A DNA stretch of 64,000 nt from Hyphobacterium sp. (GCF_965217055.1 NZ_OZ244227.1:1283652-1347651); one strand, 5' to 3'. Shown: positions 17,405 to 30,434, numbered from the stretch's first letter. A program made the numbers and translations. Notes: generated by a model not told the origin, from the sequence alone.

Positions 17405-19720
17405 TCAATAACGGAAGGCGATGGTGCCGGTGACGGTCCGCGGATCGCCGTAGAAGGCGGTCAGCGTTCCCTCGAGGCCGAGCTCCGGAGCCAGCGTCGC
17501 ATTGTTCACAAAATCGTAGCCGGCGACGATATAGCGCTCGTCGGTCAGGTTGCGACCGTGGATGCCGAACTGCCAGCGGCCATCGTCGGAGTCCCATACA
17601 AGGCTCGCATTCCAGAGCGTGAAAGCTTCCTGGTCGATGCGGTCGAACGGGATCTCGAACTGGGTCGAATCCCCGCGATGGGACAAGGTGTTGAGGATGG
17701 TCAGCTCGCCGTTGCGCAGCGGCGTCGTATAGGTGAGCGTCGCGGCTGCCGTCAGTTCCGGCGTGTTCTGGATCTCGACCTGGTTGGAGATATCCTGGCC
17801 AAACGCATTGATGAAGGTTCCGTACTCGCCGTCGAGCAGGCCCAGGGCCCAGTCCAGTGACAGGGTATCGCCGCGGCCCGACATGTCGTCGGAAATCAGC
17901 AGCGAGCCTTCGTATTCGAGGCCGTTGATCGTGGCTTCGGCGGCGTTGGTGGTGACGCCCGTGAAGGTGTCATTGACGCCGTCGCCATCCGTGTCGACGC
18001 CGACCGAACCCGGGATCTGGACGTCCTGGTAGTCCATGAAGAAGACGGCGAGCGCATGGCGATAGCGGCCATTGTCGTAACGCCAACCGATCTCGTAGCT
18101 GTCCACTTCTTCCGGGTTGAAGCCCATGAAGTTGTAGATCTCATCAGCGCTGACATTGCCGTCGCCGTTAAAGTCCGGCGCCGCCGTGGTCTGGCCGCGG
18201 GGGTCGAAGCTGCCGCCCTTGAAGCCCTGGCTGTAGGAGCCGTAGATCGCGCTCTGGTCGTTGATCGTGAACAACAGCGAGGCGCGCGGCGAGAAATCGT
18301 CCCATTCGGCGCTGCCCTGGAAGTCGGACGTCGTCGCAATCAGCGTCGGGCTGCCGCCGAAGAATTCGGAGAAACCGCCAATATAGGTGCGGCGCAACAC
18401 GCGCGATGTGCGCTGGTCATTGGTGTAGCGGCCACCGATCGAGGCGCTGACCCATTCATTCAGGTCAAAACTGACATCGGCAAACACCGACCAGGTCTCG
18501 GTGGAGACATCGCCGAAGGTCTGGGCATTGAGCCCCGGCAAGCCGATCAGGCTGCCAAGCGGGCCGAGCACCACGTCAAACACCGTGCTGGCATTGGCAT
18601 CGAGATAATAGAGGCCGCCGACACCGCTGATCCGGTCGCCTTCGAACAGGATCTGGAATTCCTGGGAGAACTGGTCGTTCTCGTAGATCGCCGGAACGTC
18701 GAGATCGTCTGCCGGCAGGCTGTCGAAATCGATCGGCGTCGTCGATTCGTCCTGGCGATAGGACGTGATGCTGCGGAAGCTCCAATTGTCGTCATGCTGG
18801 TATTCGGCGAGCAGCGTGCCGCCAGACGCCTCGACATGCTGGTCGACGACATTGAGGCCGGCGCGGGTATCGTAGACATCGTTGAGCACAGGGGCGCCCG
18901 AGAAAGCCCCCGGGATCAGGCGGTGACCCTGGCGCGGCGCCGAATCGTCGGTCACCGTGTCACCGGACAGGCGGAAGAACCACTGGGCGTTGGGCTCGAA
19001 CTCGGCCGAAGCGCGGAAGGCCAGCACTTCCTTGTTGTAATTGTCCTGACCGGTCACGAGATTGCTGCCATAGCCGCCGCGATTGAGGCTGGCGACAGCG
19101 GCGCCGACGCGGAAGGTCTCGCTTAGCGGGGCCGATCCGGAGACGATGGCGTCGATCTGCTCATAGCTGCCGATATTGAGCCGGGCGTTCAGCGTCGGCG
19201 CGTCGGGATCGAGCCGGCGGGTGATGTATTTCACGGCGCCGCCGATCGTGTTGCGGCCGTAGAGCGTGCCCTGCGGACCGCGCAGGACTTCGATGGCCTG
19301 CACGTCGTAGATGTCGAGCACGGCCGCCTGCGGGCGGTTGAGATAGACATCGTCGAGATAGATGCCGACACCGGATTCAAACCCGGCCACCGGATCCTGC
19401 TGGCCAACGCCGCGGATGAAAGCCGTCAGTGTTGAATTGGTACCGCGGGAGACTTCCAGAGTGACGTTCGGCGTTGTCTGGCCGACAAAGGTGATGTCCT
19501 GGGCGCCCGATGTTTCCAGCGCGTCACCGGAAAAAGCCGTAACCGAGACCGGCACGTCCATGATGGATTCCTCGCGCCGGCGCGCGGTCACGGTGACGGT
19601 GTCGCGCTGGCCGTCCATGGTGGTGTCGTCCTGAGCTGCCGCAGGGGCGGCCATGACCGGCAGAAGCGACACGCTGGCCAGAAGCGCGGCGAGCCGAACG
19701 GAATGATTGCGGTATTTCAT
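17405..19720 (-). CDS. TonB-dependent receptor
   Basis: Signal peptide ..MAAPAAAQ, plug motifs DTVTVTARR and IEVLRGPQGTLYGRNTIGGA, long beta-barrel, aromatic C-terminus (IAFRY). ATG 19720 is preceded by GGAGGGAG. Confidence 0.9.
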   Translation of the reverse strand: MKYRNHSVRLAALLASVSLLPVMAAPAAAQDDTTMDGQRDTVTVTARRREESIMDVPVSVTAFSGDALETSGAQDITFVGQTTPNVTLEVSRGTNSTLTAFIRGVGQQDPVAGFESGVGIYLDDVYLNRPQAAVLDIYDVQAIEVLRGPQGTLYGRNTIGGAVKYITRRLDPDAPTLNARLNIGSYEQIDAIVSGSAPLSETFRVGAAVASLNRGGYGSNLVTGQDNYNKEVLAFRASAEFEPNAQWFFRLSGDTVTDDSAPRQGHRLIPGAFSGAPVLNDVYDTRAGLNVVDQHVEASGGTLLAEYQHDDNWSFRSITSYRQDESTTPIDFDSLPADDLDVPAIYENDQFSQEFQILFEGDRISGVGGLYYLDANASTVFDVVLGPLGSLIGLPGLNAQTFGDVSTETWSVFADVSFDLNEWVSASIGGRYTNDQRTSRVLRRTYIGGFSEFFGGSPTLIATTSDFQGSAEWDDFSPRASLLFTINDQSAIYGSYSQGFKGGSFDPRGQTTAAPDFNGDGNVSADEIYNFMGFNPEEVDSYEIGWRYDNGRYRHALAVFFMDYQDVQIPGSVGVDTDGDGVNDTFTGVTTNAAEATINGLEYEGSLLISDDMSGRGDTLSLDWALGLLDGEYGTFINAFGQDISNQVEIQNTPELTAAATLTYTTPLRNGELTILNTLSHRGDSTQFEIPFDRIDQEAFTLWNASLVWDSDDGRWQFGIHGRNLTDERYIVAGYDFVNNATLAPELGLEGTLTAFYGDPRTVTGTIAFRY

Positions 19721-19814
19721 GGTGATCTCCCTCCAGCCCTGCGGTGATTTTCGCTGACCTCGAAACACGCACGCGGCCACCGACCCGACAGGGTCCTTTC
19801 ATGTTTATTGCCGC

Positions 19815-19830: not shown

Positions 19831-19969
19831 AGTTGAAATGTCAATCGAAATTCATTGAGCGTTGAAATTAGTTCCGGATGTCGGCATTGATGCAACACCG
19901 GCAAATGGCTTGCGGGATGACCGGCCGGATGCGAGGGTCATTCGCAAACCTCTGATCAGGGGAGACAAA

Positions 19970-20608
19970 TTGGCCAACCGGGGTGAGATCACGCGGCAGA
20001 AGATTCTCGATTCTGCCGAGAAACTCTTTGCGCGACGCGGTTATCATGGTGTCACCATCCGGCAGATCACCCAGGATGCGGACGTCGATACGGCGCTGGC
20101 CAATTATCATTTCGGCAGCAAGCGGAATCTGTTCGATGCCGTGCTTCTGCGCCGCGCCGAGGAGCTCAACGAAGTGCGGCTGCACCGGCTCGAGGAAATC
20201 GAGGCCGCCGCCGAGAACGGCGTTGCCAGCCTGGAGGACATCATCGATGCCTTCTCGCATCCGCTGCTCGAGAAATCGGCGCGCGGCGGCCCCGGCTGGA
20301 AGAGCTATTTTGCGCTGATCGCCCAGATCAACAACTCGCCGGAATGGGGCGGCAAGCTGATGACGGAGTATTTCGATCCTCTGGTGCGGCGCTTCATCGC
20401 CGCCATCAAGCGCGCTCTGCCCGACGCGTCGGAAGCCGACATTTACTGGAGCTATCACTTTTTTTCCGGCGCGCTGGTGCTGACCTATGCCGAGACCGGC
20501 CGCATCGACAATCTGTCGGACGGGGTCGTTCATTCCAGCGACCTCGATGCCGTTCAGCTGCGCCTGCCGCCCTTCATCGCGGCCGGGTTCCGGCGGCTTT
20601 GCGAGTAA
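19970..20608 (+). CDS. TetR/AcrR family transcriptional regulator
   Basis: HTH ILDSAEKLFARRGYHGVTIRQITQDADVDTALANYHFGSKRNLF. TTG 19970 with GGGGAG upstream is favoured; the track ORF begins at 19862. Confidence 0.85.
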   Translation: MANRGEITRQKILDSAEKLFARRGYHGVTIRQITQDADVDTALANYHFGSKRNLFDAVLLRRAEELNEVRLHRLEEIEAAAENGVASLEDIIDAFSHPLLEKSARGGPGWKSYFALIAQINNSPEWGGKLMTEYFDPLVRRFIAAIKRALPDASEADIYWSYHFFSGALVLTYAETGRIDNLSDGVVHSSDLDAVQLRLPPFIAAGFRRLCE

Positions 20609-20617
20609 AGCCACACT

Positions 20618-20633
20618 CAACAAATTCAACGCT
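20618..20633. promoter_or_regulatory. Candidate TetR operator, copy 2 (CAACAAATTCAACGCT)
   Basis: Same 16-mer as 19815-19830, located between the tetR stop and the acyl-CoA synthetase start. Embedded in the dyad TCAACAAA-N18-TTTGTTGA. Confidence 0.45.
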
Positions 20634-20705
20634 TGTCTAAATTTTGTTGACGGCAGCGCGCCTTCGCGCCCACCATGAGGTCGGGCTGAAGGGGAGGCTC
20701 GCAGC

Positions 20706-22256
20706 ATGCCATTGCGGCTGACATCGCACGCACCGTTCTTTCCCGAGATCCTGTCACTGCACGCGCGCTGGCGCAGCGGACAGGCGGCGCTGGTCTGTGA
20801 GAAAAGCGGCACGCTGAGCTGGGCCGAATTCGAGGCGGCTGCCAATCGCCGGGCCAATGCCTTCCTGGCTTCCGGACTGCAACCGGGCGACGCCATCGCC
20901 CTGGCCATGTCGAACAGCGCGGAAATGGCGCTGGTGATTGCCGCGGCGATGAAGGCCGGGCTGGTCACCGCGCCGCTCAATACCAGCGTCCAGCCGGATG
21001 CCATGCTGACGATGATCAGAGACGCAGGGGCGCGTGCGGTCGTCGCATCGCCAACCCATGCCGCATCGCTGGACGCTGCCGCGGCAGATGCCGGCGGCAA
21101 ACTGCCCGAGCTGAAGCTGCTCGACGGCACTGACCATTCCGTCTGGCAGGCGCTGGACGCATGGGCGCAAGGCGCTGCCGACAGCCCGCCGGCCTGGCGC
21201 GCGAAGCGCGACGATCCGCTCAACATCATCTATTCGTCGGGGACGACCGGGCAGCCGAAGGGCATTTTGCACACGCACGGCACGCGGCTCGACTGGGCCT
21301 ATGATCTTGCCATCGCTCTGCGTTATCATTCCGGCGCCCGCACGCTGGTCGCGCTGGGGCTTTATTCCAATATCAGCTGGGTGATGATGCTGTGCACCTG
21401 GCTGGCCGGCGGCACGCTGCACATTCGTCCCGGCTTCAGCGCGGCCGATGTGCAGGACCAGACCGCCCGACATGGCATCACGCACACCGCCATGGTGCCG
21501 GTGCAGTATCAACGCGTTCTCGACGATCCGGGTTTCGATGCCGGCCAGCTGGCTTCGCTGCAATACGTGATGTCCTGCGGATCGCCCTTACTGGCGCACA
21601 CCAAGGCAGCCTGGCTGGAAATCTGTCCCGGGGTGATCGAGCTCTACGGGCTGACCGAGGGGCTGATCACGACACTGGACCCGGAGGATGCGCCGGGCCG
21701 GCTGGCCTCGGTCGGCAAGCCGCTGGCGGGTACCGATATCCGAATCCTCGACGATGACAACCAGAATTGCGCTCCCGGCACCGCCGGAGAGATTGTCGGC
21801 CGCGGCCGGATCGCCATGCCCTTCTATCACAATCGATCCGATGCGACCCGCGAGGCGAGCTGGACGGACGAGACCGGCGCTGTCTGGCTGCGCACCGGCG
21901 ATATCGGCCAGCTGGACGAAGACGGTTTCCTCTACATTGTCGATCGCAAGAAGGACATGATCGTGTCCGGCGGACAGAATATCTATCCCAAGGACATCGA
22001 GACGGTGCTGATCGGGCACGAGGCCATCGCCGATGTCGCGGTAATCGGCATTCCCGACGCCAAATGGGGCGAAACACCGCTGGCAATCATCGTCGCTGCG
22101 AACGGCGAGGCGCCGGGTGCAATGGCCCTGGTCGAGTGGGCAAACGCCAGGCTGGGCAAGCAGCAACGCCTGCGTGGCGCGCGCTTTGTCGACGAATTGC
22201 CGCGCAATGCGAACGGCAAGGTGCTGAAACGCGAACTGCGTGCCCGGTTCGGATAG
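20706..22256 (+). CDS. AMP-dependent synthetase/ligase (acyl-CoA synthetase)
   Basis: 516 aa. AMP-binding signature IIYSSGTTGQPKGILHTHG and GDIGQLDEDGFLYIVDRKKDMI. Confidence 0.9.
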   Translation: MPLRLTSHAPFFPEILSLHARWRSGQAALVCEKSGTLSWAEFEAAANRRANAFLASGLQPGDAIALAMSNSAEMALVIAAAMKAGLVTAPLNTSVQPDAMLTMIRDAGARAVVASPTHAASLDAAAADAGGKLPELKLLDGTDHSVWQALDAWAQGAADSPPAWRAKRDDPLNIIYSSGTTGQPKGILHTHGTRLDWAYDLAIALRYHSGARTLVALGLYSNISWVMMLCTWLAGGTLHIRPGFSAADVQDQTARHGITHTAMVPVQYQRVLDDPGFDAGQLASLQYVMSCGSPLLAHTKAAWLEICPGVIELYGLTEGLITTLDPEDAPGRLASVGKPLAGTDIRILDDDNQNCAPGTAGEIVGRGRIAMPFYHNRSDATREASWTDETGAVWLRTGDIGQLDEDGFLYIVDRKKDMIVSGGQNIYPKDIETVLIGHEAIADVAVIGIPDAKWGETPLAIIVAANGEAPGAMALVEWANARLGKQQRLRGARFVDELPRNANGKVLKRELRARFG

Positions 22257-22320: not shown

Positions 22321-22839
22321 CTAGCGGCGGTGCGCGTAGGACCCTGCGAATTCCCATTCGCCATGGCTGTTGCGGCACATTTCGAACGAGCCGCGATCAT
22401 AGTCACCATATCCCGACCAGGATTCGGATTCGAAACTGGCGCAGGTCTGGTGGCCGCGACGATAATAATCGCGGGGCTGGATGGCGCCCTTCGCACCGGT
22501 CCTGGGATTTTCCCAATAGGACGGTGCCCGATACTCTGCGGACCAGCCGCTGGCATGGGCATACTGGCGCTCGTCACACTCGTTGAAGCGGCCCGAGAGC
22601 CCGACATTCACGTTCAGGACCGGACCAACATCCAGCATTGCGCCCAAACCCAGCCCGCCAGACGAGCGCGGCTGGCAAGCGCGCTCGAAATAACGGAAAT
22701 TCTGGCGGTCGTAACCGCCCTCGTAATAGCTGTGGTGATAGCTGAAACTGGTGGATCCACCCGATTGTGCGTAGGCACCGGCGCTTGCGAGCGCGACCAG
22801 CGGCAAGGCGGTGGCGAGGAAAAGCTTCTGAATCTGCAT
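22321..22839 (-). CDS. Secreted Tyr/Gly-rich 4-Cys protein, unknown family
   Basis: 172 aa from ATG 22839 (AGGAGGA SD). Signal peptide MQIQKLFLATALPLVALASAGAYA/Q; four Cys. An ECF-type promoter lies just upstream. Confidence 0.75.
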   Translation of the reverse strand: MQIQKLFLATALPLVALASAGAYAQSGGSTSFSYHHSYYEGGYDRQNFRYFERACQPRSSGGLGLGAMLDVGPVLNVNVGLSGRFNECDERQYAHASGWSAEYRAPSYWENPRTGAKGAIQPRDYYRRGHQTCASFESESWSGYGDYDRGSFEMCRNSHGEWEFAGSYAHRR

Positions 22840-22877: not shown

Positions 22878-22903
22878 AACGCATGACAGGCGATTTTTAT
22901 TCC
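22878..22903 (-). promoter_or_regulatory. ECF-type promoter GGAATAA-N15-CGTTGTCT for the 4-Cys protein gene
   Basis: Read on the minus strand. The -35 overlaps the anti-sigma stop codon and the -10 lies 38 nt before ATG 22839. Confidence 0.5.
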
Positions 22904-23592
22904 CGCCAATCTGCAGCGGCCGCCCGTTCGACGGATTCGGCATCCAGAGGGTCGCCGTCAATGCGCCGGTCAATCTCGTCCAACAGGGTGGACGGAAGGG
23001 GCGACGCAGCGAGCTGGTAGCCTGCCGCCGGCCTTTCCTCGCCGGAGATCAGCAATTGCACCTGCCAGCCCTGTTCCGCGCGGCAGGCGAGACCACGCGT
23101 GGCAGCGGACGTCCCGGCGAAAGCACGGCAATATCGTCCGCTCTCGTCGCGGAAGGTGACCGGAATCTGCCAGGCCTCGCTGCCAACAGGGGCATCGAGA
23201 GCTGCCGCGAGCTGCGCATTGGCCAATGTTGACTGCCCGGAAATGCCGGAATCCGTTGCCAGGAACTGGGCGCCAACAAAAAGGCCCAGCGCCAGACTTG
23301 CCAGCGCGGCCAGTCCCGGTGCTGCCAGGGGACCGGTGAACCAGTTGCGAATCCGGTCGGCCACGCCGTAGGCGGGCGCCTCCTCGCCCAGCAAGGCGGC
23401 GAACCGCCGGGGCACCGGATCGTTGGCGACGGGCGCATAGTGTGAGCGGATCCTGTTGGCGAGACGACGCTGCGCCTGTGTACGTGCGGCAAGGTCCGGA
23501 TCGGCCTCGAGGTCAGCTTCGAAACGGGCCTGACTTTCAGCCGGCATCTCGCCATCGACGAAAGCCAGAATGTCTTCATCGCGCCAGCTCAT
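22897..23592 (-). CDS. Single-pass membrane anti-sigma factor
   Basis: 231 aa. The start overlaps the sigma gene stop by 4 nt. N-terminal anti-sigma-like helix (DEDILAFVDGEMPAESQARFEADLEADP), central TM helix, periplasmic domain with 2 Cys. Confidence 0.75.
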   Translation of the reverse strand: MSWRDEDILAFVDGEMPAESQARFEADLEADPDLAARTQAQRRLANRIRSHYAPVANDPVPRRFAALLGEEAPAYGVADRIRNWFTGPLAAPGLAALASLALGLFVGAQFLATDSGISGQSTLANAQLAAALDAPVGSEAWQIPVTFRDESGRYCRAFAGTSAATRGLACRAEQGWQVQLLISGEERPAAGYQLAASPLPSTLLDEIDRRIDGDPLDAESVERAAAADWRE

Positions 23593-24101
23593 GCGGCGTC
23601 TCCCTCGCTCTCGGACAATTGCGCTTCAAGCGCCTGGCGACCACGCGCCAGGCGGCTGGTCAGCGTGCCCATCGGTATGTCGAGTACGGATGCCGCTTCC
23701 TTGTAGGACAAGCCCTCCACGAGGACGAGCGAAACCGCGATGCGCTGCTCGGCGGGCAAGGTCTGCATTGCGGCCTCGACGGACAGGGCGCGGATCCGCT
23801 TGTCGAATGCCGGGTCCTCGGCCCCGACGCCGGTTCCGGCCTCTTCCGGCGCAAAAGTGGCGGCCCGCCGGGTGCGGGCCCTGATCTCGTCGATCCAGAT
23901 ATTCTTGATGATCCTGTACATCCAGCTGTCCAGTCTTGTCCCGGCCTGAAACTGGCCCGACCGGGTCAGCGCTCGCTCCAGCGCCATCTGGAGCAGATCG
24001 TCGGCATCTGCGTCATTGGGCGCCAGAGACCGGCTGAACCGCCGCAAGCGCGGCATGATTTCCAGCAATCCCGCCCGAAATTCGGCATCTTTTCGCGGCA
24101 T
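23589..24101 (-). CDS. ECF (sigma-70 family) RNA polymerase sigma factor
   Basis: Region 2 (ADDLLQMALERAL ... DSWMYRIIKNIWIDEIR) and region 4 (LVLVEGLSYKEAASVLDIPMGTLTSRLARGR). ATG 24101 preferred, because the track start at 24143 lies inside the promoter palindrome. Confidence 0.9.
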   Translation of the reverse strand: MPRKDAEFRAGLLEIMPRLRRFSRSLAPNDADADDLLQMALERALTRSGQFQAGTRLDSWMYRIIKNIWIDEIRARTRRAATFAPEEAGTGVGAEDPAFDKRIRALSVEAAMQTLPAEQRIAVSLVLVEGLSYKEAASVLDIPMGTLTSRLARGRQALEAQLSESEGDAA

Positions 24102-24115
24102 GCTATTATTCCGGC

Positions 24116-24148
24116 AACGAATGGAAGAATGCGTTTCTTCCATACGTT
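24116..24148. promoter_or_regulatory. 33-bp near-perfect palindrome holding two interdigitated divergent ECF-type promoters (GGAAGAA-N15-CGTT on each strand)
   Basis: AACGaATGGAAGAA-tgcgt-TTCTTCCATaCGTT. Plus-strand motif at 24123-24148, minus-strand motif at 24141-24116. Confidence 0.6.
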
Positions 24149-24205
24149 ATCGATTTTGCGGGTCCGGCATAGTCCGCCGGCTCAATGGAATCCGGAGGCC
24201 CTGAC

Positions 24206-25465
24206 GTGTTGCGCCTGTTGTTTCTTGCGGTGTTCTGGCTGGCCGCGGCGCCGGCCTTCGCCCAGCTCGGATTGCCCAACCGGCTGCCGGTGCGCCTGCC
24301 GGATACGCCGCTGGGCGAACCGGAGCGATTGCTGGACGAGCTTGATCGACGCGTCCTCGACGAGATCGAGGATGCCCGGCGTGACACGCTGAACACCTTG
24401 CTTCGCGCCCATCGCGATCTGCTGGAGCGGGCGCCGGGAGGCGATGTCGTGCTGCGCGGAGAAGTGATCGTGATCGATCCGTCGCCGGCCCTCCTCGCTC
24501 TGGCCAGTGCCGCCGGGTTCACCGTGATCGAGGACCGCAGCGAACCGGCGCTGAACTTGCGTTATCTGCGCTTGCGCGCGCCGAGGGGGATCGGCACCCA
24601 GGGCGCGCTTGGCCTGTTGCAGCAGTTCGATCCGGGCGGGCTGTTCGATCTCAACCCGATCTACACGCTGTCGGGTGAAGCAGGCGGCCGCAAGACCGTC
24701 CAGGACGCAGGGATCCGCAATGATGTGCGGATCGGCATGATCGATGCCGGAGTACCGGCCGATAGTTTCTCACCCGGGCAGGTGATGACCCGCGCCTTCC
24801 GCGGGTCGCGCGTCGCGCCGCACGAGCACGGTCTGCAGGTCGCCGCCATCCTGGCATCGGCCGACGGAGCGGCGCCGGGGGCGCGGCTCTTTGCTGCCGA
24901 TGTCTACGGCGGGGAACCGACCGGCGGCTCGGCCGACACGATCCTGCGGGCGCTGGGCTGGATGGCGGAAGCGGATGTGCGGGTCGTCAATATCAGCATT
25001 GTCGGACCGCGGAATGTCGCCTTGCGCGCCGCGATTGAACGCTTCACCGCACAAGGCCGGATCGTCGTCGCGGCGGTCGGCAATGACGGAGCAAATGCGC
25101 GGCCGCTCTATCCGGCCGCCTATCCGCAAGTGATTGCCGTAACCGGCGTTGATGCCAGCCATCGCATCCTGCCGGAGGCAGTGCAGGGCGATCATGTCGA
25201 CTTCGCGGCGCGCGGCATGGACATGGTCTGGCCGTCGCTGAACGGGCGGCGGGTACAGGTGCGCGGCACGTCTTTCGCCGCCCCGATCGTCGCCGGTCTC
25301 CTTGCCACGGAAATCGCCGCAGGACGTCCGCCACAGGACGCTGAAGCCGCGCTCGCCGCCAGCGCTCGCGATCTCGGCCGGCGCGGCCGCGACGATGTCT
25401 ACGGGCATGGCGCCGTGGGCGATAACCTGTTCCGCGCACGGCGAGCCGATCTGCGCCGCCGCTAG
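24206..25465 (+). CDS. S8 family (subtilisin-like) serine peptidase with N-terminal pro/extra domain
   Basis: Catalytic residues in IGMIDAG (D), HEHGLQVAAIL (H), AAVGNDG (N), GTSFAAPIVAG (S). Signal peptide VLRLLFLAVFWLAAAPAFA/Q. GTG 24206 with GGAGG 7 nt upstream is favoured over the track ATG 24185. Confidence 0.9.
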   Translation: MLRLLFLAVFWLAAAPAFAQLGLPNRLPVRLPDTPLGEPERLLDELDRRVLDEIEDARRDTLNTLLRAHRDLLERAPGGDVVLRGEVIVIDPSPALLALASAAGFTVIEDRSEPALNLRYLRLRAPRGIGTQGALGLLQQFDPGGLFDLNPIYTLSGEAGGRKTVQDAGIRNDVRIGMIDAGVPADSFSPGQVMTRAFRGSRVAPHEHGLQVAAILASADGAAPGARLFAADVYGGEPTGGSADTILRALGWMAEADVRVVNISIVGPRNVALRAAIERFTAQGRIVVAAVGNDGANARPLYPAAYPQVIAVTGVDASHRILPEAVQGDHVDFAARGMDMVWPSLNGRRVQVRGTSFAAPIVAGLLATEIAAGRPPQDAEAALAASARDLGRRGRDDVYGHGAVGDNLFRARRADLRRR

Positions 25466-25474
25466 CTTTATTCC

Positions 25475-25500
25475 GGAAGAAACCTCCCGCTCGATCCGTT
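25475..25500 (+). promoter_or_regulatory. ECF-type promoter GGAAGAA-N15-CGTTGTCT for the anchored low-complexity protein gene
   Basis: Same heptamer and spacing as the palindrome copies. Lies 59 nt before ATG 25559 (SD GAAGGGAGG). The track TTG start (25499) falls inside the -10. Confidence 0.55.
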
Positions 25501-25558: not shown

Positions 25559-26419
25559 ATGCGTACGCTTTTGACCATTGCCACCATCCTGGCCGCCATC
25601 CCGGCCGCACACGCCCAGCTCGGCACGGTGACCGGTACAGTGCAGGATACCACGCAGCTCGAGACCGACGCGCTCGATCTCGACGCGACCAGCCGGATCG
25701 GCTCGCGCCTGCAAACCGATGTACCGACCTCGCGCATCGAGCAAATGCGCCAGCGCCGCGCCCTGCGGGAGGCCCGCAGTGCCGCTGTCGAAGCGCGCGA
25801 GGCACCGATAATGAACACCGGATCGCAATCGGCGGTGCAAACGGGTGTCGCGGATACGGCCTCTGCCGCCGTTTCGAATACTGCGGCAGCATCCGCCACG
25901 CCGCGCCAATCCACCGCCTCGGCGGTCACGACCAGCTCTGCTGACATTGCCGGCCAGACCGCTGTTGCCGGCCAATCCACGATTGTGACGGTCGACCCGC
26001 CGGCCCCGCGTCCCGTGGCGCGGGTGCAAAGCGCAGCCGAAACGGTCGATGACGCCGCCGCGTCAATCGCGGTGGAGGTGCCATCTTCTTCCGTGTCCGT
26101 GCCGGCGGTTAGCGCCAGCGCGCCTGCCGTGGCGGTGACCTCGCCCGCCCCGCGCCCCGCTTATGTCGGGTCCGGGGGCTCCACGGTCATTATCCGCGAT
26201 CGCAGCCAGCCGGCCCAGGCCGAACCCGTCGCGGCCACACCGCCAGCGCTTCAACCCGCTTCGCGCGTGACGCCGCAGCCGGTGCCGGCCCGCGCGGCCA
26301 ACAGATGGATTGATCCGCAAAGCATTTCCGAGAATGCCTTCTCAATCTGCTGCGCGCTGCTGCTCGTCCTGACGCTGCTGATGGCGGCGCACATGCTGAC
26401 CCGTCGCCGGGTCCGGTAG
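25559..26419 (+). CDS. Exported Ala/Ser/Thr/Pro/Val-rich (mucin-like) protein with C-terminal membrane anchor
   Basis: 286 aa. Signal peptide MRTLLTIATILAAIPAAHA/Q, long low-complexity region, C-terminal TM (FSICCALLLVLTLLMAAHML) followed by TRRRVR. Confidence 0.75.
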   Translation: MRTLLTIATILAAIPAAHAQLGTVTGTVQDTTQLETDALDLDATSRIGSRLQTDVPTSRIEQMRQRRALREARSAAVEAREAPIMNTGSQSAVQTGVADTASAAVSNTAAASATPRQSTASAVTTSSADIAGQTAVAGQSTIVTVDPPAPRPVARVQSAAETVDDAAASIAVEVPSSSVSVPAVSASAPAVAVTSPAPRPAYVGSGGSTVIIRDRSQPAQAEPVAATPPALQPASRVTPQPVPARAANRWIDPQSISENAFSICCALLLVLTLLMAAHMLTRRRVR

Positions 26420-26472: not shown

Positions 26473-28470
26473 TCAGCGCGTAATCCGCAGGCCGATGCTC
26501 ACCGCTCGTTCCTCGCCGGGGAAGTAGCGGGCACTGCCAAAGGCAAAGTCGGCGCGCTCGGCATAGCGGATATCTGCGAGATTGCGGATCGTCCCGATCA
26601 ATGTGACGCGGTCATTGGCGGACCAGCGCAGGCGCAGATTGAGGAGGTCATGCCCGTCATAGTCATTGGCATTGGCGGCATCGGTAAAATAGCCACCGAC
26701 ATGCACCCATTCGAGGCCAGCCCGGAGCCGGTCGGTGGCCTGCCAGTCGAGGCGGGCATTCCAGAGCCATTCGGGCGCCGAATCGATACGATTGCCGGCA
26801 CGGATGAGTTCGCTGGCATTGCCCACCACCCGGTCGAAATCATAACTGTGCTCGGCCCAGCTTCCCGCGAGCGCGACATCGAGACGCTGTGTCAGCGGCC
26901 AGTCGAGATCGAACTCGATGCCGTGATGGCGCGTCGCACCATCGGTGACATTGAAGCCATCGGCATCGCGAAAGAAGACATTCGTCTTGCGCATGGCAAA
27001 GGCGACCAGTTCGAGGCGGCCGCCACCGGCAAAACCGCGGCGGTAGCCGATTTCCGCATTGTCGAGCACTTCCGGTTCAATGCCGGAAATGTCCTGACCG
27101 GGTTGCAGCCGGTAGAGCTCGGCGGTCTGCGGCGCGCGGCTGCCGCGCGCGAGGCGTGCAAACACCGCTCTGTTGTCAGCAAGCTGCCAAACCAGCCCGG
27201 CATGCGGGGTCAACACCGCGAAATCGTCTGTGCGGTCCGGCGGGCGCAGATAGCGGCCGACAGTGTTGGCGGGCAAATGATTGTCATAGTCGAAGCGCGT
27301 GGCTTCCCAGCGCGCGCCGGCGTGCAGCGTCCATGCCGGCGACAGCGACCAGCGAGCCTGCGCATAGAGCGCCGCGACATCCGCCCTCACCGTGTAATCA
27401 TAATGTTCGCCCTGCACGAAGGAGAAAACGGTCGGCCGCTCCTGGGTTTCCGTCAGATAGCCTTGCGTACGCTCGATATCTGCACCCAGTGTCAGGCGAC
27501 CGGACGCGGCTTGCCGGACCAGCGCGGCCTGCAGACCGATACTGTCATGACCGCTTTCCTCGAGCGCCTCTGACGGCAGGAAATGCATACGGAAATCCAT
27601 CGCATTGGACCGGGCGTAGGGGGTCAGCGACCCGTGCCACGGGCCGTCGAGATCCGCTTCGAGCCGCAAGGCTGCGCGCACGGTATAGGCATCGCGGAAA
27701 CCCTCCGGATCCGGATTACTGCGCGATAGCGACAGATTCTCATAGGCGCGCGGGCCGCGAATATAGCCGGCGGTCTCCTGGTTGAGCGAGATCGCTGCGA
27801 GGGTGAAGCGCCAGTCGAGTCGCGGCGTGCTGCCTTGTGCGCGCAACAAGGCTTCGAGCCGGTCGAGCCCGGCCTCGGCGCGCCAGCCCTCCTCGTGCTG
27901 GCCTGCCAGGCCGGCCAGCCATTGCAGGTTTTCCGACGTCGCGCTCCACAGCGCGTGTCCGCGTACGCGGCCGAGGGAGCCGGCTTCCAGCTCCAGCGTC
28001 GGTGGCAGTGTGGCCGGGCCGGGCGTGCGATAATTGATCAGTCCATGCAGCGCATTGGAGCCGTAAAGCGCCGGGCCCGGACCCCGCACGATCTCGACAC
28101 TGCCGGTCAGTCCGCCAAGCGCCTCGAACAGGCCGTTGACATTGGCAAAGCCGGCGGCGCGCAAAGGGATTCCGTCCTCGAGATAGAGGAAGGACCCCGC
28201 CCCGGCGCCCCCGGTCAGGACCGGCGACCGGATGGCGGTGAGATGCTCGACGCCGTTGCCACGATTGATGAAAGCGCCGGGCGTGCGGTTGACCAGCTCG
28301 GCCGGGTGCTGGGATCCGGTCTCGATAATCGCATCGCGCGAGATAAACGTGATCGGCAATACGGTTTCGACGCGTGCCTCGCCGCGGCGGTCTCCGGTGA
28401 CGACGATGACGTCCTGCGCAATGGCCGGTGCGGCAAAAAACAAGAAGGCAGCAATGAAAGCGCGGGTCAT
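26473..28470 (-). CDS. TonB-dependent receptor
   Basis: 665 aa. Signal peptide ..APAIA/QD, plug motifs (VIVVTGDRR, GAFINRGNGVEHLTAIRSP, VEIVRGPGPALYGSNALHG), beta-barrel. Confidence 0.9.
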   Translation of the reverse strand: MTRAFIAAFLFFAAPAIAQDVIVVTGDRRGEARVETVLPITFISRDAIIETGSQHPAELVNRTPGAFINRGNGVEHLTAIRSPVLTGGAGAGSFLYLEDGIPLRAAGFANVNGLFEALGGLTGSVEIVRGPGPALYGSNALHGLINYRTPGPATLPPTLELEAGSLGRVRGHALWSATSENLQWLAGLAGQHEEGWRAEAGLDRLEALLRAQGSTPRLDWRFTLAAISLNQETAGYIRGPRAYENLSLSRSNPDPEGFRDAYTVRAALRLEADLDGPWHGSLTPYARSNAMDFRMHFLPSEALEESGHDSIGLQAALVRQAASGRLTLGADIERTQGYLTETQERPTVFSFVQGEHYDYTVRADVAALYAQARWSLSPAWTLHAGARWEATRFDYDNHLPANTVGRYLRPPDRTDDFAVLTPHAGLVWQLADNRAVFARLARGSRAPQTAELYRLQPGQDISGIEPEVLDNAEIGYRRGFAGGGRLELVAFAMRKTNVFFRDADGFNVTDGATRHHGIEFDLDWPLTQRLDVALAGSWAEHSYDFDRVVGNASELIRAGNRIDSAPEWLWNARLDWQATDRLRAGLEWVHVGGYFTDAANANDYDGHDLLNLRLRWSANDRVTLIGTIRNLADIRYAERADFAFGSARYFPGEERAVSIGLRITR

Positions 28471-29459: not shown

Positions 29460-30239
29460 TTAGCCCACCGATGCCATGCCGGATACATCCGCCCGCGTCG
29501 CATTCAGCACGATGGCCTGTGCGTCCGCGTCGAACATTGCATCGCTTTCCGAGACAGCAACAACACCCTCGGTATTGATGCCCGAACGGTCGAAGTGAAC
29601 CTGACCATTCGTGTCGGCGTCATAACGGGCGACGGTACCGATGCGATAGCCGTCACTGCTGTAAACGGCCACATGGCCGCTTCCGCCGGCGTGGGAGGAC
29701 GCCGCGGCGCCGGTATAGGCCGACGCACTGTCCGGCGCATCAGCGCTGACCGAACCGCCCGCATACATTTGCGAGCGCTGCTCCAGCTGCGATGCCAAGC
29801 GGGCGCTGGCATTGCTGCGGTCATAGGCCGTCAGCGAGGTTTGCAGCGTCTGGCGCATGCGCGTCTGCGCGTCCAGCGTGGCGTCGGTCTGGGCGTTGAC
29901 CGTGTCGTCAACACCAAGATCCGTGTTCACACCGCTGTCCAGGCGAGAATCGATATCCGTCTGTTGGTCGAGTCGGGAATCGATATCCGTCTGCTGGTCC
30001 AGGCGCGAATCAAGGTCCGTCTGTTGGTCCAGCCGGGAATCAAGATCTGTTTGCTGATCGAGGCGGGAGTCGATTCCGCTGCGCTGGTCGACGATGCCTT
30101 GCGTGGTCTGGCTTGTCGTGGACGACAAGGAGCCCCGCGTCTGGTTCTGGACAGAACCCGTGAGGTCGGTGACCTGCGCCATAGCTGCCGTCGTCGGCAG
30201 GATCATGGCCAGTACAAGGCCGGTCGTTGCGATTTTCAT
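29460..30239 (-). CDS. Secreted protein with five DSRLDQQTD decapeptide repeats and a possible PRC-barrel-like C-terminus
   Basis: 259 aa from ATG 30239 (GGAGAG SD). Signal peptide MKIATTGLVLAMILPTTAAMA/Q. The C-terminal VYSSDGYRIGTVARYDAD... is PRC-barrel-like (weak recall). Confidence 0.75.
   Translation of the reverse strand: MKIATTGLVLAMILPTTAAMAQVTDLTGSVQNQTRGSLSSTTSQTTQGIVDQRSGIDSRLDQQTDLDSRLDQQTDLDSRLDQQTDIDSRLDQQTDIDSRLDSGVNTDLGVDDTVNAQTDATLDAQTRMRQTLQTSLTAYDRSNASARLASQLEQRSQMYAGGSVSADAPDSASAYTGAAASSHAGGSGHVAVYSSDGYRIGTVARYDADTNGQVHFDRSGINTEGVVAVSESDAMFDADAQAIVLNATRADVSGMASVG
29937..30092 (-). repeat. In-frame 30-bp tandem repeat (5 units)
   Basis: (I/L)DSRLDQQTD four times plus IDSRLDSGVNTD, preceded by the degenerate VDQRSG. 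Confidence 0.8.
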
Positions 30240-30272
30240 TTCAAGCTCTCCATTGGTTGCGAGCACCAATAC

Positions 30273-30297
30273 AACGCGAAGGCCAAATCGGAGTTCC
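30273..30297 (-). promoter_or_regulatory. ECF/EcfG-type promoter GGAAC-N16-CGTTGTAT for the DSRLDQQTD-repeat gene
   Basis: Read on the minus strand. The -10 lies 33 nt before ATG 30239. Confidence 0.5.
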
Positions 30298-30434
30298 GGG
30301 AGAATGCATATCGTGATCAGAGCGCCGGGGCACCCGGCCTGGCGTACTGCAAAATGACGTTCACGGCAGGACTGCAATTCGCTTGACGCACCACGGCGAT
30401 GCGCAATGCTTCGGCGAACAATGGAGACTTACCC

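Follow-up and report, generated by a model that had tools for sequence, protein, structure and literature searches.

A 33-bp palindrome in Hyphobacterium is a probable bidirectional promoter of an apparently ECF26-like sigma factor

The analysed window is a 64,000-nt stretch from Hyphobacterium sp. (NZ_OZ244227.1:1283652-1347651), a member of the Maricaulaceae. Two divergent genes, which encode an ECF sigma factor and a secreted subtilase (Peptidase_S8, hereafter S8), are separated by a 104-bp gap that houses a palindrome (Table 1). With ATG 24101 as its start, the sigma factor is 100% identical to a public 170-aa protein from Hyphobacterium sp. A longer sigma ORF from ATG 24143 is not conserved; a stop is located in the equivalent frame of the Maricaulis locus L004. 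The family matches of the 231-aa anti-sigma ORF are all sub-threshold, with 24 bits for NCBIfam antisigma, for which the cutoff is 100, and 19 bits for Pfam NepR. S8 starts with GTG 24206, and GGAGG is located at 24194-24198, 7 nt upstream. The product of the gene at 25559-26419, the homologue of which comes after S8 in L001-L003, has a signal peptide and an extended region rich in Ala, Thr, Ser and Val; the C-terminal hydrophobic helix of the protein precedes RRRVR, and neither Pfam nor NCBIfam gave a match. TonB-dependent receptor genes at 17405-19780 (-) and 26473-28470 (-) flank these genes, and 19862-22256 contains genes for a TetR protein and an acyl-CoA synthetase; neither pair has an apparent link to the sigma locus. 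A predicted secreted protein with approximately five tandem copies of the 10-residue DSRLDQQTD[L/I] and no Pfam match is encoded further away, at 29460-30377 (-).

Table 1. Features of the sigma/S8 locus. Positions are counted from the first nucleotide of the window; L numbers denote homologous loci.
Feature	Coordinates	Strand	Basis
Exported protein, weak similarity to 17-kDa surface antigen family, ATG 22839	22321..22839	-	Downstream of fourth promoter
Fourth promoter (candidate), GGAATAA-N15-CGTT, not palindromic	22878..22903	-	23.2 bits; conserved in L001-L003
Putative anti-sigma factor, 231 aa, one hydrophobic helix	22897..23592	-	Start overlaps sigma stop; downstream of sigma in loci reaching that far
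ECF sigma factor, 170 aa, Sigma70_r2 + r4_2, ECF26-like	23589..24101	-	Pfam; 44% identity to S. meliloti RpoE6
Dyad-symmetric element with both putative promoters	24116..24148		Repeat geometry; register conserved in L001-L006
-10 CGTT, sigma-side promoter	24116..24119	-	Motif match, conservation
-35 GGAAGAA, S8-side promoter	24123..24129	+	Whole site 18.1 bits; complement TnTTCC invariant in 7 loci
-35 GGAAGAA(AC), sigma-side autoregulatory promoter	24135..24141	-	26.1 bits, top site of window; homologous site in 80/80 loci
-10 CGTT, S8-side promoter	24145..24148	+	Motif match, conservation in seven loci
Secreted subtilase (Peptidase_S8), signal peptide, divergent target gene	24206..25465	+	Divergent from sigma in 79/80 loci
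Third promoter (candidate), GGAAGAA-N15-CGTT, not palindromic	25475..25500	+	10 nt past S8 stop; 18.9 bits
Secreted Ala/Thr/Ser-rich protein, ATG 25559 with ribosome-binding site	25559..26419	+	Downstream of third promoter; homologue in L001-L003

The palindrome, AACGAATGGAAGAA-TGCGT-TTCTTCCATACGTT, occupies 24116-24148 and is a 33-bp inverted repeat (14+5+14) with a 5-nt loop and arms that are complementary at 13 of 14 positions. GGAAGAA-N15-CGTT is found as an exact match on both strands, at 24123-24148 (+) and at 24141-24116 (-). The -10 elements form the outer ends (24116-24119 and 24145-24148) and lie 25 bp apart, and each -35 element is placed inside the spacer of the other promoter, with 24123-24129 (+) located within the sigma-side spacer. 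The sigma-side CGTT is followed after 14 nt by ATG 24101. As single-stranded DNA, the element folds into a hairpin of -11.3 kcal/mol (z = -4.1). An earlier note on this DNA had described the 33-bp palindrome with 14-bp arms and one mismatch, the same motif on both strands, a -35 element within the opposite spacer, the subtilase start at GTG 24206 with its GGAGG, and an almost leaderless sigma gene about 15 nt past the -10 element. The inverted-repeat check and the motif search agree with this description, the S8 start and GGAGG are confirmed from the sequence, and the short sigma leader is conserved, as described below.

No other inverted repeat in the 64-kb window combines 14-nt arms, one mismatch or none, and a loop no longer than 10 nt. 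Repeats of the same quality occur at a mean of 0.33 in windows simulated with a first-order Markov model, and 7 of 30 simulations contain at least one. Taken alone, the palindrome is within chance expectation for 64 kb; significance was therefore rested on motif clustering and conservation. A weight matrix was built from the sigma-side sites of 80 homologous loci and reads GGA[A/T]GAAA[C/A]-N13-CGTT[T]. Because GGA and CGT were required when these sites were chosen, the matrix is circular at those columns; columns outside the search pattern are also conserved, with A at -35 position 8 in 77/80 and T after CGT in 61/80. A scan of the 64 kb with this matrix yields four top sites of 26.1, 23.2, 18.9 and 18.1 bits and a fifth of 12.2 bits, whereas the null maximum has a mean of 11.6 bits and a largest value of 19.6 bits (50 simulations). 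The motif with at most one mismatch has 5 matches versus 0.86 expected, a number that is reached in 0 of 100 shuffles. The motif cluster and its conservation exceed chance.

The top four matrix sites are the two strands of the palindrome, 25475+ and 22903-. The last two are GGAAGAA/GGAATAA-N15-CGTT copies without a palindrome and lie within 2.6 kb of it. All four sites are properly placed 5´ of a gene, and those at 25475+ and 22903- precede genes with a ribosome-binding site. The S8-side site is weaker by matrix than the sigma-side site in this genome (18.1 versus 26.1 bits), and the TGCGT loop provides it with a T where 77/80 sigma-side promoters show A. The -35 element of the fourth promoter (22897-22903, -) consists of the last anti-sigma codon, GAA, and the TAA stop, and this arrangement is conserved in L001-L003, which makes it a candidate internal promoter embedded at the end of a coding sequence. 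With two palindromic and two non-palindromic putative promoters of one type, the locus constitutes a five-gene, four-promoter module.

The sigma family is large and tightly conserved, with approximately 55-65% identity over alpha-, beta- and gammaproteobacteria. GGA[A/T][G/T/C]AA-N15-CGT[T/A/C] was observed upstream of the sigma start in all 80 loci, and the N15 spacing of this sigma-side promoter is invariant. Its distance to the sigma start is approximately 5-31 nt and mostly 11-20 nt, which indicates that the short sigma leader without a Shine-Dalgarno sequence is a family trait. S8 is divergent from sigma/anti-sigma in 79 of the 80 loci. The remaining one (L014, Betaproteobacteria) has S8 downstream of sigma/anti-sigma on the same strand, and there the sigma-side promoter is kept and no opposite-strand site is detectable. 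In most loci, the motif also occurs singly and without a palindrome upstream of neighbouring genes, and a counterpart of the third promoter is located just 3´ of S8. Only 1/69 isolated motif sites elsewhere in the loci has an opposite-strand partner; palindromy is not intrinsic to the motif.

The Maricaulaceae loci were aligned to locate the conserved bases of the intergenic region. The alignment comprises seven loci, namely the window, L001-L003 and L005 (Hyphobacterium), L004 (Maricaulis) and L006, with a sigma identity of 59-87%. The only invariant intergenic blocks are AACG, GGAAGAAA, TnTTCC and CGTT, and variation is seen in the 3-nt linkers, in the greater part of the loop and in all sequence beyond the element. 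Two of these blocks, AACG upstream of the sigma-side -35 element and TnTTCC in the sigma-side spacer, are used solely by the S8-side promoter. In gammaproteobacterial loci that have no S8-side site, neither the spacer nor the sequence 5´ of the -35 element is conserved. The blocks that serve only the S8 side are invariant in the Maricaulaceae and yet not conserved in these gammaproteobacteria, which argues that both directions are under selection. The S8-side score equals the sigma-side level in L001 and L003-L006 and is below 15 bits in L002, the closest relative. The presence of two ECF-type promoters, as first proposed in the earlier note, is thus supported by the sigma-side sites of all 80 loci, the two nearby copies and the four invariant elements.

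The sigma-side promoter could also work alone, with the opposite match as a by-product and S8 transcribed from another promoter, which we consider unlikely. The lower scores of the S8-side site here (18.1 bits) and in L002 (<15 bits) are in line with such an arrangement, and S8 is evidently expressible by other means in the gammaproteobacterial homologues, which have no recognisable intergenic S8-side site. A weak sigma70-like extended -10 candidate also faces S8 at 24082-24109. A by-product does not explain why AACG and TnTTCC are invariant in seven loci while ordinary spacers and flanks are not conserved, or why the S8-side scores match those of the sigma side in L001 and L003-L006. In addition, the S8 homologue of Sinorhizobium meliloti is the strongest local target of the sigma factor RpoE6 and has a mapped ECF-type promoter (PMC6180224), and the sigma70-like candidate has lost its TATTAT in L003-L006. 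This candidate (TCGGCA-16-TGcTATTAT, + strand) is located within the first sigma codons and points toward the palindrome and S8; with its TATTAT kept only in the closest relatives, it is probably a chance match.

Symmetric elements in a different register were observed in 30 loci (Sphingomonadales and two Phenylobacterium), which carry GGATGAAACG-N12-CGTTTCATCC and read GGATGAA-N15-CGTT on both strands. The -35 elements are outermost in this version, and the 3´ end of each (AAAC+G) complements the -10 element of the other promoter. The same bases can serve as a -35 end and an opposite -10 element because AAAC of the ECF -35 element is the reverse complement of GTTT of the -10 element, an inherent pseudo-symmetry that may be common to many ECF promoter types. 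The central 12 bases are variable and non-symmetric. In the Sphingomonadales loci within L012-L079, the element sits approximately 40 nt upstream of the sigma start.

A further arrangement, AACG-N10-GGAAGAAAATCC-N10-CGTT, was found in 19 betaproteobacterial loci, with at least 90% conservation of the AACG and ATCC blocks. The S8-side -35 element that it implies is GGATTTT, and the site scores only approximately 0-3 bits; owing to this poor score, a third register is rated here as possible and not as established. S8 starts approximately 9 nt past the outer CGTT and has no Shine-Dalgarno sequence in the betaproteobacterial loci that were read (including L016, L022, L023, L055 and L070). This spacing suggests that the S8 mRNA is leaderless in these loci, versus a predicted GGAGG leader of approximately 50 nt in the window. 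In six loci, the sites are separate and stand back to back. Just two offsets are seen among site pairs that score above 15 bits, namely -7 (6 loci) and +6 (30 loci). In an unrooted sigma tree, the topology of which was used for clade membership only, the window register and the betaproteobacterial register each correspond to one clade, and the +6 register comprises the Sphingomonadales clade and a separate Phenylobacterium pair. An S8-side candidate in Steroidobacteraceae (offset approximately +36 to +38) was rejected, as it lies inside the sigma coding sequence and has a poor -35 element and a matrix score below 0.

The registers bear on the idea that the palindrome is an operator, bound by a dimeric transcription factor that controls both genes, with the ECF resemblance being secondary. 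A perfect or nearly perfect inverted repeat between divergent genes is classically a sign of such a regulator, and this repeat is conserved and folds with a z of -4.1 as single-stranded DNA. The blocks are, however, permuted between registers while N15 is kept on both strands, which argues for promoters and not for an operator. Three half-site arrangements occur across the clades with a constant -35/N15/-10 spacing, the central spacer of the Sphingomonadales version consists of 12 variable and non-symmetric bases, and the motif also stands singly and non-palindromically 5´ of adjacent genes, both in the window and in the majority of loci. A fixed half-site arrangement with a cognate regulator gene was not found. 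No regulator gene besides sigma/anti-sigma is conserved in the 80 loci, and the TetR gene (19862-20608) lies 3.5 kb off, beside the acyl-CoA synthetase gene. An operator function is improbable.

The sigma family looks ECF26-like. It contains the two domains of this group, regions 2 and 4 (Pfam Sigma70_r2 and r4_2), and the sigma factor of the window shares 44% identity over 151 aa with S. meliloti RpoE6, which was assigned to ECF26 by ECFfinder (PMC6180224). A divergent serine protease is widely conserved among ECF26 (Lang et al. 2018, PMC6180224), and Peptidase_S8 takes this position in the window and in 79/80 loci. The published ECF26 consensus comprises a -35 GGAATA and a -10 CGTT (PMC6180224), and the family matrix conforms to an ECF26 promoter of the form GGAATA / (C)GT(TTT). 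The earlier note had framed the promoters as EcfG-type; both the context (divergent S8, predicted membrane anti-sigma) and the motif match ECF26/RpoE6 instead. With respect to EcfG (ECF15), no PhyR or NepR genes are present at the locus, and the -35 element is GGAAGAA, not GGAAC. A PhyR_sigma2 Pfam match was rejected as a sign of EcfG, as it reflects the generic region-2 fold. The main text of the ECF reclassification paper makes no mention of S8 peptidases.

The RpoE6-EcfR6/SMa0142 locus of S. meliloti resembles the window in several respects. An S8/serine protease is divergent from an ECF sigma factor and a membrane anti-sigma factor, the protease SMa0142 is 33% identical to S8 of the window, and regulation is directed mainly at the protease and the small genes next to it. 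RpoE6 overexpression induces SMa0142 (log FC 4.7), the anti-sigma gene ecfR6 and neighbouring small genes, and the mapped SMa0142 promoter reads GGAATA..CGTT with a start 9 nt after CGTT (PMC6180224). In contrast to the window, the mapped rpoE6 start belongs to a sigma70/RpoH-like promoter, which lies on the far side (PMC6180224), the SMa0142 promoter adjoins the sigma gene, and the locus lacks both a palindrome and an ECF-type promoter directed at rpoE6. The non-ECF start mapped for rpoE6 indicates that autoregulation from an ECF promoter is not universal in the clade. On pSymA (L081, 6872-6939), the mapped rpoE6 and SMa0142 starts face each other with an overlap of approximately 10 nt. The 5´ ends of the two transcripts are thus mutually antisense, a different coupling of the same gene pair. 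The pSymA locus is homologous and was rejected as a model of the geometry, as its promoters are arranged differently and it has no palindrome.

The promoters could be real but read mainly by another ECF sigma factor such as the general-stress EcfG. GGAA..-N-CGTT resembles the EcfG consensus, and 27/40 RpoE6 targets in S. meliloti are common to the EcfG-type RpoE2, a motif similarity on which the authors remark (PMC6180224). On the other hand, the motif tracks the sigma gene over alpha-, beta- and gammaproteobacteria, including groups without EcfG, and lineage-specific -35 elements (GGAAGAA, GGATGAA or GGATTAA) co-occur at all sites of one locus. In S. meliloti, ecfR6 is upregulated only on RpoE6 overexpression, and Table 1 of that study lists no RpoE2 effect for SMa0142 (PMC6180224). 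Reading mainly by another sigma factor thus has a low probability. Very improbable is a structural role as a terminator, a cruciform or a hairpin in the 5´-UTR of an S8 transcript with an upstream start: the DNA hairpin (-11.3 kcal/mol, z = -4.1) and the sigma70-like candidate at 24082-24109, which would start near the left edge of the palindrome, are compatible with it, but scans of the region gave no terminator-like site and no relevant Rfam match, the arms are invariant with no covariation or compensating changes, and the arms lie 12 nt apart in the Sphingomonadales and the paired blocks far apart in the Betaproteobacteria, so that a common hairpin is not preserved across clades whereas promoter spacing is.

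We consider it likely that the palindrome is a compact bidirectional promoter of the sigma factor encoded at 23589-24101, on the basis of motif, geometry and conservation. The putative membrane anti-sigma factor (22897-23592) would release sigma, and the holoenzyme could then dock on the 33-bp element in either orientation, with the local sigma factor as the presumed reader of both promoters. Docking on the minus strand (-35 at 24141-24135, -10 at 24119-24116) would lead to transcription of sigma and anti-sigma, i.e. autoregulation, and docking on the plus strand (-35 at 24123-24129, -10 at 24145-24148) would lead to transcription of the secreted S8 peptidase. Judged from the SMa0142 start, the S8-side transcript is predicted to start at approximately 24153-24158 and to have a leader of approximately 50 nt with GGAGG. 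The sigma-side start is predicted at approximately 24107-24110 from the S. meliloti start, with a leader of 6-9 nt and no Shine-Dalgarno sequence. The promoters 25475+ and 22903- would drive the two flanking exported-protein genes. In the proposed layout, the S8-side promoter (P1) would serve S8, the sigma-side promoter (P2) sigma and then anti-sigma, the third (P3) the secreted protein next to S8, and the fourth (P4) the exported protein beyond the anti-sigma gene.

The whole palindrome would form the upstream half of either polymerase footprint. From the location of each -35 element in the spacer of the other promoter and the predicted starts approximately 45-50 bp apart, we infer that one RNA polymerase binds at a time and that the two directions are mutually exclusive. 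Firing of the target promoter would damp the autoregulatory promoter, and the reverse. A related effect is documented in an ECF system, in which HrpL RNA polymerase at the divergent hrpJ promoter represses the hrpL promoter itself (Waite et al. 2017, PMC5263251). In E. coli bidirectional promoters, competition was observed only when one direction was strongly activated (PMC12825309), which suggests that exclusion may matter little at low occupancy.

The overlap itself may have been selected. On this tentative and rather doubtful reading, the clade repeatedly fused the autoregulatory and main target promoters, independently at offset -7 (Maricaulaceae) and at offset +6 (Sphingomonadales/Phenylobacterium) at the least, and perhaps a third time at offset -14 (Betaproteobacteria). 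Neutral compaction, after which the overlap was frozen, is a live alternative. In interleaved promoters, every insertion or deletion disrupts one or both N15 spacers, so that the register is frozen within a clade and a conserved register is no proof of selection.

To our knowledge, ECF promoters are treated as strictly directional. If the bidirectional reading is correct, one ECF sigma factor reads the same 32-33 bp both ways, which would extend the concept of bidirectional promoters beyond sigma70 and provide a natural minimal device that splits transcription between feedback (the gene of the sigma factor itself) and output. It would also account for the tight linkage of the S8 peptidase to the sigma/anti-sigma pair. 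If the overlap was selected, each sigma-binding event would be allocated either to more sigma/anti-sigma or to output, and the output-to-feedback ratio would be hard-wired, with a built-in brake on positive autoregulation. The element would then be an ECF counterpart of sigma70 bidirectional promoters, made from interleaved -35/-10 pairs and not from shared -10 hexamers. If neutral compaction applies, the locus is simply an autoregulated ECF module of the usual kind, whose intergenic region happens to be compact. The two or possibly three natural registers are ready-made variants for comparison.

Searches for overlapping, symmetric or palindromic ECF promoters, for ECF26 and for the motif strings did not find this geometry described in the limited literature covered, which is consistent with the statement of the earlier note that it is undescribed. 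Compared with a typical autoregulated ECF sigma/anti-sigma operon, the window has the same own-type promoter directly upstream (80/80 loci), and differs in that the DNA of this autoregulatory promoter also holds, on the opposite strand, a second promoter of that type. The hrpJ-hrpL region of Pseudomonas syringae (PMC5263251) is similar in that an ECF holoenzyme at a divergent target occludes the regulatory region of its own sigma gene, and the occlusion by HrpL results in negative autogenous control (PMC5263251). In contrast to the window, hrpL depends on sigma54 and an enhancer, its promoter lies beside the hrpJ promoter without interleaving, and dyad symmetry is absent.

The sigma70 bidirectional promoters (Warman et al., bioRxiv 10.1101/2020.01.31.928960; NAR 2026, PMC12825309) also consist of pseudo-symmetric DNA that engages RNA polymerase either way, with opposite-strand elements that share bases, and polymerase bound one way prevents binding the other way (bioRxiv 10.1101/2020.01.31.928960; PMC12825309). 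The Sphingomonadales register resembles them in its coinciding elements, as the -35 ..AAAC(G) is the -10 CGTT(T) of the other strand. The sigma70 promoters have overlapping -10 hexamers, and their starts are separated by 7-25 bp, with 18 bp as the most frequent distance (Warman et al., bioRxiv 10.1101/2020.01.31.928960); the element of the window lies outside this definition in both respects. It differs in the use of a group-4 sigma factor, in -10 elements that do not overlap and in complete -35/-10 pairs that are interleaved. The predicted start spacing is also different, with approximately 45-50 bp in the window, approximately 33 bp in the Sphingomonadales and approximately 53 bp in the betaproteobacterial arrangement. 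Moreover, both directions are predicted to depend on one inducible sigma factor, and one of them leads to its own gene. The idea of a symmetric two-way promoter is thus already known for sigma70; what appears new, within the literature covered, is an ECF26-like module in which the autoregulatory and target promoters appear fused in one dyad-symmetric element that is conserved in at least two registers.
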